IMG/VR virus record: IMGVR_UViG_3300028612_002641
Reading direction: 5' to 3' (one strand)
DNA from: a virus
Length of the DNA stretch: 6,599 bases
Positions 1 through 6,599 of this stretch are shown here, piece by piece (within the stretch, counting starts at the first letter, position 1; each line of letters begins with the position of its first letter). A program made the translations under genes and the position numbers. The notes beneath the pieces are model-generated. The model worked only from the letters and a program-made list of their open reading frames with translations. It made no database searches and was not told where the DNA came from.

Positions 1-40
1 CAATCAGGTTGTATGGCTTCATTTCTGGCTCCTCAGCGTT

Positions 41-113
41 TGTCTAATGATGCTTGACAACCGCAAAACCCTCAATGTCTAATGCCGATATACATGTCAA
101 GTCTCATTAGACA
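41..113. promoter_or_regulatory. Operator cluster: three copies of the 9-mer TGTCTAATG (41-49 direct, 76-84 direct, 105-113 inverted)
   Basis: The 9-mer was read directly at all three positions. 75-84 (ATGTCTAATG) and 105-114 (CATTAGACAT) form a perfect 10-bp inverted repeat. 41-59 and 95-113 form a 17/19 inverted repeat. The cluster lies between the leftward repressor gene and the rightward operon, and copy 2 overlaps the candidate -10 box. Confidence 0.6.
54..83 (+). promoter_or_regulatory. Candidate sigma70-type rightward early promoter
   Basis: A perfect TTGACA at 54-59 is followed by an 18-nt spacer and TCTAAT at 78-83 (5/6 to TATAAT). It sits upstream of the first + strand ORF at 152. 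Confidence 0.5.
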
Positions 114-151
114 TACGGAAGTCAACTCGACCACTTCCAAGGGGGAAGACC

Positions 152-1936: not shown

Positions 1937-1938
1937 GA

Positions 1939-1982
1939 GAGAGGGGGATAGGGCCGCGCGCGCGCGGCACGACCCCCCTCTC
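1939..1982. repeat. GC-rich compound palindrome/hairpin between rep and the ssDNA-binding gene
   Basis: The outer 9-bp stem pairs GAGAGGGGG (1939-1947) with CCCCCTCTC (1974-1982). The inner 16-nt GCCGCGCGCGCGCGGC (1953-1968) is a perfect palindrome containing (CG)6 at 1955-1966. No T-run follows it. Confidence 0.8.
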
Positions 1983-2815: not shown

Positions 2816-4261
2816 ATGAATTACTTCACACGCCAGCTAATCCGTGCCTTGGAAAACCGGCTGTTCCGCCAGCTCGCCTACTACATCATAGCCGCGGCAA
2901 TCGCCTTGCTCGGCTTGATCGCGAACACAGCACTCGCCGCAACAGTAGAGGATCCCCAGGCGACACCGGGAACATACTGCACCCTCCCAAATGGCTGTGA
3001 AGCTTCAAGCTCAGATCCGCGTTACGATACTCAAGAAGACTTCGTAAATGGCTGGTGCGGTAACGACTTCAACCCGCCGTCAAACTCAACTGCCCATTCG
3101 TGCACCACGGTAACAGTTGACAATAGATACTACGCCGTTGGCCGCTGGTGCCGTTCGATACACACAGCAACCGGCCTTCCATTCCAGCGCTCATACTCAA
3201 CTGGCCCACTAACTGGCATCTGCGTTTTCTCCGACGAAGCGCCCACCTGCAACATCCCCGAAGGAACAGAGCAGAGACTCGAAACTTCCCTATCCCTTAC
3301 ACAGGTGTGCTTCTCTAACTGCATCTTCGATAGCCCAAAGAAACAGATTGGAGGCTACGGTGCTGACGGAAGTCTCCGATGGTTCGCAGACTACACAAGC
3401 ACAGGAGAGTACTGCGACGACCCTAACGGCGATTCATCCCGCCCATTCGACGATTTCACAGATGACGACGACTGTTACATTGGCATAAATGGCAAAAAGT
3501 ATTGTGGTGTCCCGAACAACAGCCCGTGCCCTAACTACATCATGGTGGACGGCAAAAAGTACTGCCAGACAGCCGAAGAAGGGGAAAACCCAGTCGACTC
3601 AGACGGTGACGGCTCACCTGACGGAGAAGACCCAGACCCAACAAATCCCGATACTGACGGAGACGGTGCCCCAGATGGTAACGACCCAGACCCTACAAAT
3701 CCGGATACTGACGGCGACGGCATACCAGACGGCGAAGACCCAGACAATGACAACAACGGCATTCCCGACGACGAAGAAGGCGACGGCCCCGCCTCAGAAT
3801 ACACATCAGGCACCTGCAACCCAGGCACCCAGATACAAGAGCCGCAATGCAGCTCAGAACTAGATGCCGTCCAGTGCGCGATATACCTCAATAACTGGCA
3901 CCACCGCTGTGACCAAAAACAGCAATACACAGACCTCTACGGCACGGAACAAGAAAGAGAAGAGGCCGCATTACAGGGCAACGAATACCTAGACCCAGAC
4001 AGCACGGAAAACCAACTCCCGTCACCCTCAGGTGACAATGTAGAAACCATCAACTTTTCCGATACGGTCTCATCCCTCGATGACTCCGGGTTCCTCTCCG
4101 GCTCCTGCCCAGGCGACATTTCTGTAGGAGTCCTGAGTACTTCCATCACCTTCTCATTTGGCCCCGTTTGCCAGCTTCTAGAAAACATCCGCCCGATATT
4201 TATAGCCCTCGGCTGGTTCGCTGCAGCACTGATCCTCGGCCGTTCAATGACAGGAGCTTAA
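2816..4261 (+). CDS. Adsorption / minor coat protein (pIII-like), 481 aa
   Basis: This is the largest ORF and sits in the pIII position. It has an N-terminal signal/anchor ending ...NTALA-ATVEDP, Cys-rich N-terminal domains, a central Asp-rich repeat linker and a C-terminal hydrophobic anchor (IFIALGWFAAALILG). Confidence 0.75.
   Translation: MNYFTRQLIRALENRLFRQLAYYIIAAAIALLGLIANTALAATVEDPQATPGTYCTLPNGCEASSSDPRYDTQEDFVNGWCGNDFNPPSNSTAHSCTTVTVDNRYYAVGRWCRSIHTATGLPFQRSYSTGPLTGICVFSDEAPTCNIPEGTEQRLETSLSLTQVCFSNCIFDSPKKQIGGYGADGSLRWFADYTSTGEYCDDPNGDSSRPFDDFTDDDDCYIGINGKKYCGVPNNSPCPNYIMVDGKKYCQTAEEGENPVDSDGDGSPDGEDPDPTNPDTDGDGAPDGNDPDPTNPDTDGDGIPDGEDPDNDNNGIPDDEEGDGPASEYTSGTCNPGTQIQEPQCSSELDAVQCAIYLNNWHHRCDQKQQYTDLYGTEQEREEAALQGNEYLDPDSTENQLPSPSGDNVETINFSDTVSSLDDSGFLSGSCPGDISVGVLSTSITFSFGPVCQLLENIRPIFIALGWFAAALILGRSMTGA
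3596..3787 (+). repeat. In-frame Asp-rich repeats (DPDPTNPDTDGDGxPDGx), thrombospondin-type-3-like calcium-binding motif
   Basis: Two near-identical 54-nt (18-aa) units lie at 3629-3682 and 3683-3736, flanked by degenerate copies (DSDGDGSPDGE, DPDNDNNGIPDDEEGDG). Confidence 0.8.
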
Positions 4262-4567: not shown

Positions 4568-5688
4568 TGTTCTGGATAGTCACCGGCGCCCCGGGAAGCT
4601 CAAAAACCCTGAACATGATTTCAATGTTCAAAACCGTGAAAGACCGCCCGATATACTTCCACGGCATCGAGCTAACAGAGGAGGGCAGACGCACCCTTAA
4701 CTGGGTAGAACTAAACAAAGACCAGGCCTACGAGTGGCATGAACACGTGCCCCACGGAGGCATATTCATCCTTGACGAAGCACAAAAAATCTTCCCCGTT
4801 AAATCGTCATCATCCCCAGTTCCCCCCGGCTTGACAGAGCTCGAAACACACCGCAAATCCGGACGAGACGTATGGTTCCTCTCACAGCACCCAATGCTCC
4901 TCCACTCCCACGCCCGGAAAATCTGCAACCAGCACTACCACTACTCACGGCCCTTCAACACTGGCAAACCGTACCGCTATCACTCGGGGTCAGGCTTCGT
5001 CGATCCCAACGACAGAAAGGCCCTTAGATTTGAGTGCGTAAAAACGAAAGTCCCCCTGGACACATCAAGCTACCCGCTTTATGTATCGGCTGAAGTCCAC
5101 ACCCACGAAAAGAAAATGCCGGGGAAAATCAAACTGCTCTACATGCTCCCCATAATGGCAGTTCTTTTCGGCTACCTCGGCTTCAAATTCCTCTCCCCCT
5201 CAGACGAAGAACAGACCGACCGAGCCGCGTCAACCGCTGCTACACAGCGAGAAAAACCAGATGGAGGCTTTTTCGCAGTCCCCTCTATTGCACAGCGCGA
5301 ACAGATCTCATGGGCAGAATCTCTACGCCCTGAAATCAACGGCATCCCATACACAGCGCCGCTATACCGCGACGAAGCTACCAAGGTCTCTTCAGTCCCC
5401 CGCATAGCCGCCTGTGTCGCCTCTAAGAAGCGTTGCCAGTGTTTCACCCAGCAGGCCACCCCGATCGCCGGCATCAGCGATCAGGTGTGCCGGCATAACG
5501 TCAAAAATGGCCATTTCGACCACATGTACCCGGAGAACAGAGGAGAAAGAGAGAAGGGCAGGTCCTCGAAAATTCAGGATCATGAAGACCGTCCAGACAC
5601 CCCAGAAACACCCCAAAGCACATCTCTGGCCCGCCTCCAGCGTGCTATCAAAATCACCCAGGAAACCCGGTTTTCCGCCCTCGACTAA
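4567..5688 (+). CDS. Assembly ATPase, pI / Zot (zonular occludens toxin-like) family, 373 aa
   Basis: An N-terminal P-loop GAPGSSKT (residues 7-14) is followed by a Walker B-like GGIFILDEAQ. A single TM helix (LLYMLPIMAVLFGYLGFKFL, about residues 190-209) precedes a C-terminal Cys-containing periplasmic domain. The position after pVI is canonical. Confidence 0.9.
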   Translation: MFWIVTGAPGSSKTLNMISMFKTVKDRPIYFHGIELTEEGRRTLNWVELNKDQAYEWHEHVPHGGIFILDEAQKIFPVKSSSSPVPPGLTELETHRKSGRDVWFLSQHPMLLHSHARKICNQHYHYSRPFNTGKPYRYHSGSGFVDPNDRKALRFECVKTKVPLDTSSYPLYVSAEVHTHEKKMPGKIKLLYMLPIMAVLFGYLGFKFLSPSDEEQTDRAASTAATQREKPDGGFFAVPSIAQREQISWAESLRPEINGIPYTAPLYRDEATKVSSVPRIAACVASKKRCQCFTQQATPIAGISDQVCRHNVKNGHFDHMYPENRGEREKGRSSKIQDHEDRPDTPETPQSTSLARLQRAIKITQETRFSALD

Positions 5689-5740
5689 ACACAACATCTA
5701 GTGCACCTGGTAGCGAGGATCTGCACAAGATGTTGTGTTT
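5687..5740. terminator. Long imperfect hairpin between convergent genes (bidirectional terminator and/or packaging-signal candidate)
   Basis: AAACACAACATCT (5687-5699) pairs with AGATGTTGTGTTT (5728-5740), 13 bp. After one A/A mismatch, GTGCA (5701-5705) pairs with TGCAC (5722-5726). CCT (5706-5708) with AGG (5716-5718) is also possible. The arms abut the stop codons of both convergent genes, and T-runs follow the stem on both strands. Confidence 0.45.
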
Positions 5741-6066
5741 TAGAAATCCATCACGAACTGTGCCGGTTTAGCCCTGAGTCGTTCCAGCTCCCGGCGCAGT
5801 TGCCTCACCGCCCACAAGCTCTTGACGTCTTCCGCCCGATACTCGTTGCCGTCTGGATCTATCAGCAGCGGGCCATCTACGCGCCATCCTTTCCAGCTTT
5901 CGTGATTCGTAGGCAAACGGCCAGCCCTGTGCAGGCTGACCAGTTGAGTTATGTGTGGGGGTGCAATGCCGGTTCTGAGGTATCGACGTATTGTCGATGG
6001 GTGACGGTAGGTGATCCGGGAGAGTTCGTTAACTGAGAGGCCGAAAGCAACATCGTTGAAGGTCAT
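5740..6066 (-). CDS. 108-aa HTH DNA-binding phage regulatory protein (possibly DUF3653-like)
   Basis: The ORF is in the track. An N-terminal HTH-like segment (LSVNELSRITYRHPSTIRRYLRTG) is followed by a W-x-GW-x-x-DG-x-L-x-x-P-DG pattern. It lies 18 nt downstream of the repressor gene on the same strand. No clear SD is present. Confidence 0.6.
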   Translation of the reverse strand: MTFNDVAFGLSVNELSRITYRHPSTIRRYLRTGIAPPHITQLVSLHRAGRLPTNHESWKGWRVDGPLLIDPDGNEYRAEDVKSLWAVRQLRRELERLRAKPAQFVMDF

Positions 6067-6084
6067 TCACACATCACAGCAAGC

Positions 6085-6477
6085 CTAAAACCCCAATCTT
6101 GCCCGCTGCCGACGCAAACCGTCTATTGAACATAATATACAGAGTTTATCCGCTACCTCTGACCAATAGGGGATAGCTATTAAACCAAAAACCGTTGCAG
6201 CAGAGTGCGTTACCGCTTGAAATCGGCGTTTCCAAACCTGCAAGCCCTCCTCGTCGTGCGAGCGTTCTGCTTGCGCGATCTTGCAGATAGCAACAGCCTC
6301 CGCCGGGTCCATCCCGATCACCTCAGCAATCGTCCAGGCGTTTTCAACACTGAGGCTCCCGCCGTGCTTAACCGCCGAAATAGCACCCCTTGTAAGCCCT
6401 AGCTCCTTCGCTACTGCGTTGTCGCTCCTAAGCCCTTTTTTCTGCTTGTACTGCTCAATCAGGTTGTATGGCTTCAT
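6085..6477 (-). CDS. XRE/Cro-CI-type HTH repressor, 130 aa
   Basis: The ATG at 6477-6475 follows GAGGAG (complement of 6484-6489) with a 6-nt spacer. The HTH reads NAVAKELGLTRGAISAVKHGG. The gene is divergent from the structural operon and adjacent to the repeated operator 9-mers. Confidence 0.8.
   Translation of the reverse strand: MKPYNLIEQYKQKKGLRSDNAVAKELGLTRGAISAVKHGGSLSVENAWTIAEVIGMDPAEAVAICKIAQAERSHDEEGLQVWKRRFQAVTHSAATVFGLIAIPYWSEVADKLCILCSIDGLRRQRARLGF
6125..6156 (-). other. dif-like candidate XerCD recombination site (attP) inside the repressor 3' end
   Basis: The minus strand reads GTAGCGGATAA-ACTC-TGTATA-TTATGTTCAAT. TGTATATTATGTTCAAT matches the E. coli dif central region plus XerD arm (TGTATA TTATGTTAAAT) at 16/17. 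The 11 nt immediately adjacent do not resemble the XerC arm. A XerC-arm-like 11-mer (8/11 to GGTGCGCATAA) lies 4 nt further out. Confidence 0.6.
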
Positions 6478-6599
6478 TTCTGGCTCCTCAGCGTTTGTCT
6501 AATGATGCTTGACAACCGCAAAACCCTCAATGTCTAATGCCGATATACATGTCAAGTCTCATTAGACATACGGAAGTCAACTCGACCACTTCCAAGGGG
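6456..6599. repeat. Terminal redundancy (exact copy of 1-144), most likely the overlap of a circular assembly
   Basis: Comparing the two ends base by base shows 144 identical nt. The repeat spans the 5' end of the repressor gene and the control region, so it is a permutation artefact and not a biological LTR. Confidence 0.95.

Follow-up and report, generated by a model that had tools for sequence, protein, structure and literature searches.

A dif-like sequence inside an inovirus repressor gene may couple Xer-mediated integration to repressor length

The 6599-nt stretch of DNA analysed here in its entirety (IMG/VR virus record IMGVR_UViG_3300028612_002641; hereafter the window) carries an inovirus genome whose repressor gene contains, in frame and near its 3' end, a sequence closely resembling part of dif, the dimer-resolution site of the host chromosome. 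On the basis of sequence comparison we consider it likely (probability of about 0.85) that the window represents a temperate inovirus which lacks an integrase, uses this sequence as its phage attachment site (attP), integrates at the host dif by means of the recombinases XerC and XerD of the host and, in doing so, shortens its own repressor, so that integration and regulation would be coupled. This interpretation draws on prophage junctions, read in relatives whose repressors are 63–89% identical to that of the window and not in this exact genome, on the pattern of synonymous variation at the site and on a census of the repressor family.

A dif-like sequence in frame in the repressor gene

Positions 6125–6141 of the minus strand read TGTATATTATGTTCAAT, which agrees at 16 of 17 positions with the central region of dif and its XerD-binding arm (TGTATA followed by TTATGTTAAAT). 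It is the sole match in the window to this part of dif at three or fewer mismatches, and no match was obtained in 200 dinucleotide-preserving shuffles. The 17-mer lies in frame in an open reading frame (ORF) of 130 amino acids (6085–6477, minus strand), where it specifies Cys113-Ile-Leu-Cys116-Ser117-Ile118. The lone mismatch is the middle base of the Ser117 codon, TCA (position 6128 of the plus strand); an A there on the coding strand would create TAA. Both the in-frame match and the position of the deviating base had been pointed out in a preliminary description made from the window alone, and both were confirmed. The elements of the gene and site are as follows.

6085–6477, minus strand: repressor gene, 130 amino acids; XRE-type helix-turn-helix (HTH), hydrophobic segment (residues ~86–102), dif-encoded CILC and a 14-amino acid tail
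6088–6129, minus strand: codons 117–130 (SIDGLRRQRARLGF), lost from the repressor on integration; the tail codons are found at the other end of the prophage
6125–6135, minus strand: putative XerD-binding arm of attP, TTATGTTCAAT, 10/11 relative to TTATGTTAAAT; the mismatch at 6128 (plus strand) turns TAA into TCA
6136–6141, minus strand: central (crossover) region TGTATA, identical in attP, in both prophage junctions and in the empty bacterial attachment site (attB)
6142–6152, minus strand: position expected for a XerC arm, which reads CGGATAAACTC; non-canonical, ~2/11 by eye relative to the host arm GATACGCATAA

The sequence at the XerC-arm position seems to be constrained as coding sequence only: relatives vary there at third codon positions, and the residues preceding CILC are not conserved in the wider family. 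The preliminary description had noted a XerC-like arm lying 4 nt too far out. Such a sequence, GTAGCGGATAA, is indeed present at 6146–6156 of the minus strand, with ACTC between it and TGTATA, but its role as a XerC arm did not hold up, since among relatives it is unconserved and either varies like third codon positions or is absent. Judged by its sequence, attP would be a double-stranded 'half' dif that consists of a 6-bp centre and a XerD arm (10/11), without a recognisable XerC arm. The phage had also been described as devoid of an integrase; in agreement with this, a Pfam scan of the nine main ORFs gave no match to any recombinase family.

Prophages of relatives are bounded by hybrid dif sites

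Two further statements of the preliminary description, that prophages should be flanked by hybrid dif sites and that their repressor should lack its last 14 residues, were borne out in relatives. A search with the repressor protein returned forms of 130–131 amino acids together with forms ending exactly at ...CILC (three of 116 amino acids and one annotated as 151 amino acids); the prophage homologues P0004, P0006, P0013 and P0017 stop at Cys116. The short forms sit on contigs that exceed the size of a phage genome. In the closest prophage found (locus L008; 4919 of 6455 window nucleotides align at 71–83% identity, and the repressor is 89% identical), one junction consists of ...GATACGCATAA, TGTATA and TTATGTTCAAT, in that order, and continues into the tail codons and the next phage gene. 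The other consists of the phage side CGGATAAGCTC (...GCGGATAAGCTC), TGTATA and TTATGTTAAAT, and continues into host DNA; the TAA of the host arm terminates the repressor of this prophage at residue 116 exactly.

The same hybrid pattern was observed in L005, L009–L013, L015–L017, L023, L026 and L027, in at least eight distinct host flanks, and both junctions could be read in seven loci (L005, L008, L009, L015, L016, L023 and L026). The phage arm is joined to the host XerC arm on the side of the neighbouring xafT-like gene described below (L008 3647, L015 4243, L005 6369 on the minus strand and L026 3329). In a distant lineage (L009–L013) the phage arm is TTATGTCAAAT, where another substitution removes the same stop. 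At the position of the TAA, a sense codon (TCA or CAA) is present in all eight free forms available and TAA in all repressor-side prophage junctions; for one prophage with both junctions, L005, a free form (L004) is at hand. The window is colinear with the prophages and its alignment with them breaks at 6141 and ~6114–6123. The possibility of prophages integrated elsewhere, raised in the preliminary description, did not materialize: no prophage of this lineage was found at a non-dif site among the relatives.

An empty site was identified in a complete Alcanivorax genome (L021, CP121315.1), in which the uninterrupted attB AACTACGCATAATGTATATTATGTTAAAT lies between TetR and RND-efflux genes; the same genes flank the L015 prophage. 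The host of L015 is an Alcanivorax, judged by a ScpB that shares 98% identity with the ScpB of Alcanivorax sp. NBRC 102024, and the left flanks of L008 and L015 are 85% identical. That the host site is the chromosomal dif is concluded from its 28-bp sequence and from the existence of the empty site, rather than from GC skew (the flanks being short). The closest free relative among the matches listed (L018; repressor 94% identical) is contig20, of 7458 bp, of Thalassospira tepidiphila MCCC 1A03514. It came from a scan of contigs with very degenerate patterns and a repressor alignment, in which at least three loci were obtained, one of them useful.

Some additional observations concern dif and its surroundings. 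Two phages with different repressor-side sequences share the same host flank (AGGAGATATCGCGATAATATC...; L026 9591 and L027 1324) and appear to be independent integrations into the same dif. In L014 (2550–6402), a repressor-side junction with the variant arm TTATGTTAATA is followed by two tyrosine-recombinase genes and a DUF6262 gene, which suggests that another mobile element, resembling a recombinase trio, abuts the prophage at dif. L009 (8082–10041) and L011 (757–949) have a prophage of the same type and share a chemoreceptor gene beyond it, but in L009 two extra host-side genes, one CoiA_N-like and one coding for a hydrolase, come before that gene and are not seen in L011; gene content beside dif therefore seems to be variable. 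Finally, a metagenome scan for the pattern xxTC, TGTATA, TTATGTnnAAT had among its returns ~15 unrelated loci or chance matches (L024, L028–L029, L031, L035–L037 and L039–L047), several of which have arms other than TAA (CAA, AAA or TGA). Some of these may be junctions or attP sites of other families of IMEXs (integrative mobile elements that exploit Xer), and others chance matches.

Constraint on the site and census of the repressor family

Synonymous variation was assessed in 11 distinct sequences that were retrieved by protein similarity only, the site being located by its protein motif. Among the columns of invariant residues with degenerate codons, 26 of 29 vary synonymously, as opposed to none of the four site codons, TGT ATA TTA TGT (hypergeometric probability ~9e-4, calculated by hand). 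The same contrast was found in a set of 16 sequences (14/14 comparison codons vary versus 0/4 at the site). Free synonymous variation across the 17-mer, which the preliminary description had singled out as worth checking, was thus not seen at the site, while neighbouring codons vary freely.

For the family census, a profile search of 1.84 billion representative proteins was carried out and 166 homologues were examined. The motif C[I/V]LC was found near the C-terminus of 64 of them (CILC in most); 24 of the 64 end directly after the motif and 40 continue. In the 40 extended homologues the residue following the motif is Gln (17 cases), Lys (14), Ser (8) or Glu (1), all of which have codons one base change away from TAA, and the second residue is Ile or Met in 38. 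It follows that the arm mismatch is in every case inside the TAA triplet and that it arose in at least four ways.

Identities on the two sides of the site are discordant. They amount to 97% on the repressor side and 74% on the side of the tail and the xafT-like gene for the window versus L002, to 93% and 75% for L015 versus L026, and to 66% and 82% for L005 versus L026. An alignment of the window, L001 and L002 shows complete identity through ...TTCAATAGAC and collapses immediately beyond. In addition, identical tails occur on repressors that are only 56–63% identical to one another. This discordance fits repeated module exchange at attP.

The repressor and its tail

The repressor matches Pfam HTH_3 (E = 5e-6) and PHROG 638, transcriptional regulator (E = 2e-20). 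An AlphaFold2 (AF2) model is confident for residues 1–72 only, that is for the HTH domain, and of low confidence for residues 96–130. Between the HTH and CILC lies a hydrophobic segment of 17 residues (residues ~86–102, window 6171–6222; Kyte–Doolittle mean 1.45–2.2), which is common to the repressors of the window, L030, L034 and L038 and to ORF13 of the Ralstonia phage phiRSS0. It looks like a transmembrane or oligomerisation helix, unusual in a phage repressor. The dif-encoded CILC is itself a CxxC motif.

Tail lengths in the 40 extended homologues have a median of 20 amino acids (range 9–51), against 16–22 expected from random read-through; none is shorter than 9 amino acids, where 21–29% would be by chance. 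Tails are net positive in 38 of 40 cases compared with 67–77% in random read-through (binomial P of about 2e-5 to 3e-3, with sequences that are not fully independent). Because simulated random read-through is usually basic as well, the charge of the tail is at most a weak sign of function. In the subfamily of the window, the tail is always 14 amino acids long and ends in AR/AK-x-x-F (...ARLGF in the window). A sister subfamily of repressors with CILC or ILC (L030 6140–6784; L038 91–775; phiRSS0, L048 6431–7151) has tails of 26–35 amino acids, and instead of the co-directional gene found in the window it has a conserved convergent small ORF (…HYWHLR.ARG.D.AR…EKKRL…) that belongs to no Pfam family. 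This ORF overlaps the tail codons in L030 and phiRSS0 and merely adjoins the repressor in L038.

The neighbouring xafT-like gene

While its reading of the site stood, the preliminary description had missed the gene that adjoins it.

5740–6066, minus strand: 108-amino acid DUF3653 protein, candidate Xer activation factor; co-directional with the repressor gene, whose stop lies 18 nt upstream

The protein matches Pfam PF12375 with 33.7 bits (cutoff 22.4; E = 4e-8), its N-terminal HTH gives only a sub-threshold match of the MerR type, and the homologue in L009 has a weaker Pfam match. In the window, the start of the gene is 59 nt away from the XerD arm. In XafT of the phage TLCphi, DUF3653 is the domain that activates XerD independently of FtsK; XafT also aids synapse assembly between imperfect sites, and xafT-type genes adjoin attP in many IMEXs (Midonet 2019, PMC6744903; Miele 2022, PMC9226527). 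A related factor, XafV, serves VGJphi. The prophages carry the xafT-like gene as their terminal gene, at the end away from the repressor, which indicates that integration separates it from the repressor promoter.

Proposed mechanism and alternative explanations

The window would correspond to the circular episomal form of the phage, the host dif to its target and the host XerC and XerD to the recombinases. A crossover in or beside TGTATA would give the two junctions that are seen by sequence comparison. In one, the host XerC arm, TGTATA and the phage arm make up a site that is 27/28 dif and probably still serves the cell; in the other, the non-canonical phage side and TGTATA would be joined to the host XerD arm, the TAA of which stops the repressor at residue 116. 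With this crossover, the 14 tail codons and the xafT-like gene would come to lie at the opposite end of the prophage, ~6.4 kb away from the promoter of the repressor. In the episome, we suppose, the repressor and the xafT-like gene are co-transcribed and the Xaf protein activates XerD without FtsK, which would drive integration as in TLCphi. Integration would sever the xafT-like gene from its promoter and leave it silent in the lysogen, and the junction lacking a XerC arm would withstand excision driven by FtsK; the lysogen would gain stability from both. Between the long and the short repressor there would be a difference in activity or stability, of the kind proposed for phiRSS0 and shown for the mycobacteriophage BPs. 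The junction sequences fit XerC-first and XerD-first exchange alike, the central regions being identical.

Several points weigh against this scheme. The XerD-first order is borrowed from TLCphi, whose attP has the opposite arm degenerate, and an attP without a XerC arm would leave the positioning of XerC unexplained. The DUF3653 protein had no detectable relative among deposited phages (tblastn) and no meaningful match in the PDB, so that its activity is deduced from the domain alone. A promoter scan found no promoter-like site, and co-transcription of the repressor and xafT-like genes is accordingly deduced from their spacing only. An integrated copy of this exact phage was not found. As to the host, the closest free relative listed lies in an alphaproteobacterial Thalassospira assembly and the prophages in Alcanivorax-type and unidentified marine contigs; Thalassospira could be a true host or the phage could have been carried over from a co-culture. 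Lastly, conservation is poor in the middle of the tail and its lengths are like those of random read-through, and for these reasons the tail may have little function of its own.

This last point leads to an alternative in which the site is attP, as we propose, and repressor length changes with integration as no more than a neutral by-product. We think this rather unlikely, although it can draw on the rapid divergence of the middle of the tail, mostly through non-synonymous changes, on tail lengths and charges close to those of random ORFs, on the low AF2 confidence for residues 96–130, and on the fact that recombination constrains the five outer positions of the XerD arm least. Against it, all 40 extended homologues are opened by one of four substitutions confined to the TAA triplet and none by a mismatch elsewhere in the arm; moreover, tails of fewer than 9 amino acids are missing, net positive tails are commoner than expected, and length and C-terminal motif are fixed in the subfamily of the window. 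Far less probable is an attP of the CTXphi type, in which packaged single-stranded DNA folds so that inverted dif-like half-sites pair, XerC alone carries out the exchange and GTAGCGGATAA serves as the XerC arm. A double-stranded site without a canonical XerC arm would be in keeping with it, as would the 8/11 match of GTAGCGGATAA to the Escherichia coli arm when shifted by 4 nt. However, the genome holds no second XerD arm, nor a XerC arm with centre, beyond chance at up to 2–3 mismatches; the plus (packaged) strand shows no more tendency to fold around the site than shuffled sequence does (z = −0.06); the displaced arm is unconserved (GTGGTCGATAA in L015 and CTCACCAATCA in L009), the residues there being variable family-wide; and a Xaf-type factor is encoded beside the site. 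With neither a second half-site nor a single-stranded hairpin, the CTX-type analogy drawn in the preliminary description was rejected. It is hardly conceivable, finally, that the 17-mer is a coding coincidence, a needed Cys-Ile-Leu-Cys that happens to resemble dif, or else an inert scar. CxxC motifs can be functional and CILC is invariant in the protein, but its codons are invariant too, though 2-, 3-, 6- and 2-fold degenerate, and the site coincides exactly with the boundaries of prophages in at least eight host contexts, with an empty dif at the same place; the junction data refute this explanation.

Beyond the window, a more general proposal can be put forward tentatively, and we regard it as possible but doubtful: 'half-site' attPs with a centre and a XerD arm but no XerC arm would form a widespread, previously undescribed class that acts as a dif-based, integration-dependent switch. 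Such sites would be carried in frame by the repressors of inoviruses of beta- and gamma-proteobacteria (at least 64 C[I/V]LC clusters at 50% identity). The host XerD arm would supply the stop, so that only integrated phages make the short repressor, and the same crossover would disconnect a Xer activation factor gene from its promoter. If this is true, lysogeny would be locked in, and the choice between episomal replication and integration would be explained.

Organization of the phage genome

Window positions 1–144 are repeated exactly and in direct orientation at 6456–6599. The window is therefore consistent with a circularly permuted genome of 6455 bp, as in an episomal or virion-derived assembly; a tandem prophage is the other possibility. 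Gene order is that of an inovirus: a Phage_CRI replication protein, a single-stranded DNA-binding protein, small coat proteins, a 481-amino acid pIII-like protein, a DUF2523 protein and a Zot-like protein. No match was found for two further window ORFs in PHROGs or for the whole genome among deposited phages by megablast, and tblastn of the Zot-like protein against deposited phages gave only relatives of <33% identity. The intergenic features are the following.

6478–6599, running on into 1–151 across the circular junction: control region upstream of the repressor gene, where the repressor and replication modules diverge
6492–6514 / 6550–6572 and 37–59 / 95–117: 23-nt inverted repeats (I2/I4), 87% complementary, containing TGTCTAATG...CATTAGACA
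5687–5740: 19-nt inverted repeat (I8), 95% complementary, between the convergent zot-like and xafT-like genes

The 23-nt repeats are operator-like and probably are the operators of the repressor. The I8 repeat is probably a bidirectional terminator; in L015, the xafT-like gene is followed by a stretch homologous to this region. Directly 3' of the replication gene (window 1937–1982) is a G+C-rich palindrome (GAGAGGGGGATAGGGCCGCGCG/CGCGCGGCACGACCCCCCTCTC) that could act as a terminator, as an origin or as a hairpin for packaging. The pIII-like ORF (2816–4261) contains three tandem 54-nt repeats (3595–3756) with Asp/Gly/Pro-rich units (DSDGDGSPDGEDPDPTNP...), which have no Pfam match and which we take to resemble calcium-binding repeats of the thrombospondin type 3. 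Upstream of the replication gene, a 222-amino acid ORF (253–921) has a Cys-rich N-terminus (CAHC...C..PRC) and a long Pro-rich region of low complexity; it is kept in relatives (L005 656–1168) and matches no family.

Comparison with known systems

The closest precedent is phiRSS0 of Ralstonia solanacearum, in which attP (dif) lies within the repressor gene ORF13 and the stop introduced by integration shortens the protein from 156 to 130 amino acids (Yamada 2013, PMC3816273; Askora and Yamada 2015, PMC4471427). Different roles were suggested for the two forms of ORF13, with functional consequences that were hypothesised only (Yamada 2013, PMC3816273). The idea of a truncated repressor, put forward in the preliminary description, is thus sound and was already in print for phiRSS0. 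ORF13 and the window repressor are 29% identical (BLASTP, E = 1e-10; residues 12–128, including ...ILC-K/S-I), and this full-length homology makes the window a distant member of the phiRSS0 ORF13/attP module family. Neither phage has an integrase, both have attP in frame at the 3' end of the repressor gene, and in both the phage XerD arm is one base off the host arm, inside the TAA triplet: the phiRSS0 site reads ...TTT ATC TTA TGT AAA ATA..., with the arm TTATGTAAAAT and Lys in place of the stop, and the window reads TGT TCA ATA, with TTATGTTCAAT and Ser. Integration creates a stop and a shorter repressor in phiRSS0, as it does in the 116-amino acid prophage forms described here. The two differ in host (a beta-proteobacterium versus marine gamma-proteobacteria), in centre (…TTTATC versus TGTATA) and in tail length (26 versus 14 amino acids). 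Whereas the window has a co-directional DUF3653 gene, a convergent small ORF overlaps the tail in phiRSS0, and no DUF3653 was detectable by Pfam among the ORFs scanned there.

TLCphi, a satellite phage of Vibrio cholerae (PMC6744903, PMC9226527), is likewise an IMEX: its attP is double-stranded and dif-like, with one of the arms defective, and a DUF3653 protein is encoded beside it. Its integration yields one good dif junction and one defective junction, which limits FtsK-driven excision; the same may be expected of the window phage. In TLCphi, however, it is the XerD arm that is degenerate, next to a canonical XerC arm, the reverse of the window (XerD arm 10/11, XerC side ~2/11); xafT flanks the XerC side of attP and not the XerD side as in the window; and attP has not been reported inside a gene. 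The likeness to XafT itself consists of the DUF3653 domain match, the N-terminal HTH reaching only a sub-threshold MerR-type score. By analogy, the window phage would be mechanistically most like XafT-type IMEXs, yet we do not file it as TLC-type because the opposite arm is degenerate. The same layout is known from the RstR–attP–XafT module of Vibrio CTX-I inoviruses, in which the repressor and a xafT-like gene flank attP in the episome and become the terminal genes of the prophage; the likeness noted is one of layout. Hosts and sequences differ, and the description of the module mentions neither a stop codon nor truncation.

Coupling of repressor form to integration state is also found in BPs (PMC4557955), where attP lies in the repressor gene and the prophage repressor is shorter at its C-terminus (gp33, 103 versus 136 amino acids). 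BPs has its own tyrosine integrase and a tRNA-type attB, whereas the window phage would use host XerCD and dif, and its phage type and host are unrelated to those of the window. Its long form was shown to be degraded through an ssrA-like tag and its short form to be stable and active; the window phage is compared with it by gene layout only. Like CTXphi and VGJphi, the window phage is filamentous, has no integrase and would integrate at dif through XerCD. Its classification as an IMEX in the preliminary description stands, given the lack of an integrase, the dif-like attP and the hybrid dif junctions of relatives, but its attP is of neither type: the folded single-stranded attP that CTXphi forms from two inverted sites was not found in the window genome, and in VGJphi both arms are present around a 7-bp centre, with XerC exchanging first and XafV assisting, as opposed to an attP without an in-register XerC arm.

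Relative to these systems, what appears to be new is the generality of the pattern, with a residue after CILC that is always one step from TAA, together with the pairing of a missing XerC arm with a DUF3653 factor and the splitting of the repressor–xafT pair by integration. The one-off observation on phiRSS0 would then hold across a broad family of inoviruses, marine ones among them, in which a phage gene incorporates the dif sequence of the host and receives its stop codon from the host arm. Natural attP sites that lack the XerC arm, not the XerD arm, each with a DUF3653 factor, would be a mirror image of the TLCphi model, which is used to study how Xer recombination escapes FtsK control. Moreover, if the two repressor forms differ in function, they would constitute a second, independently evolved case of the integration-dependent immunity known from BPs, one built on host recombinases rather than on a phage integrase.

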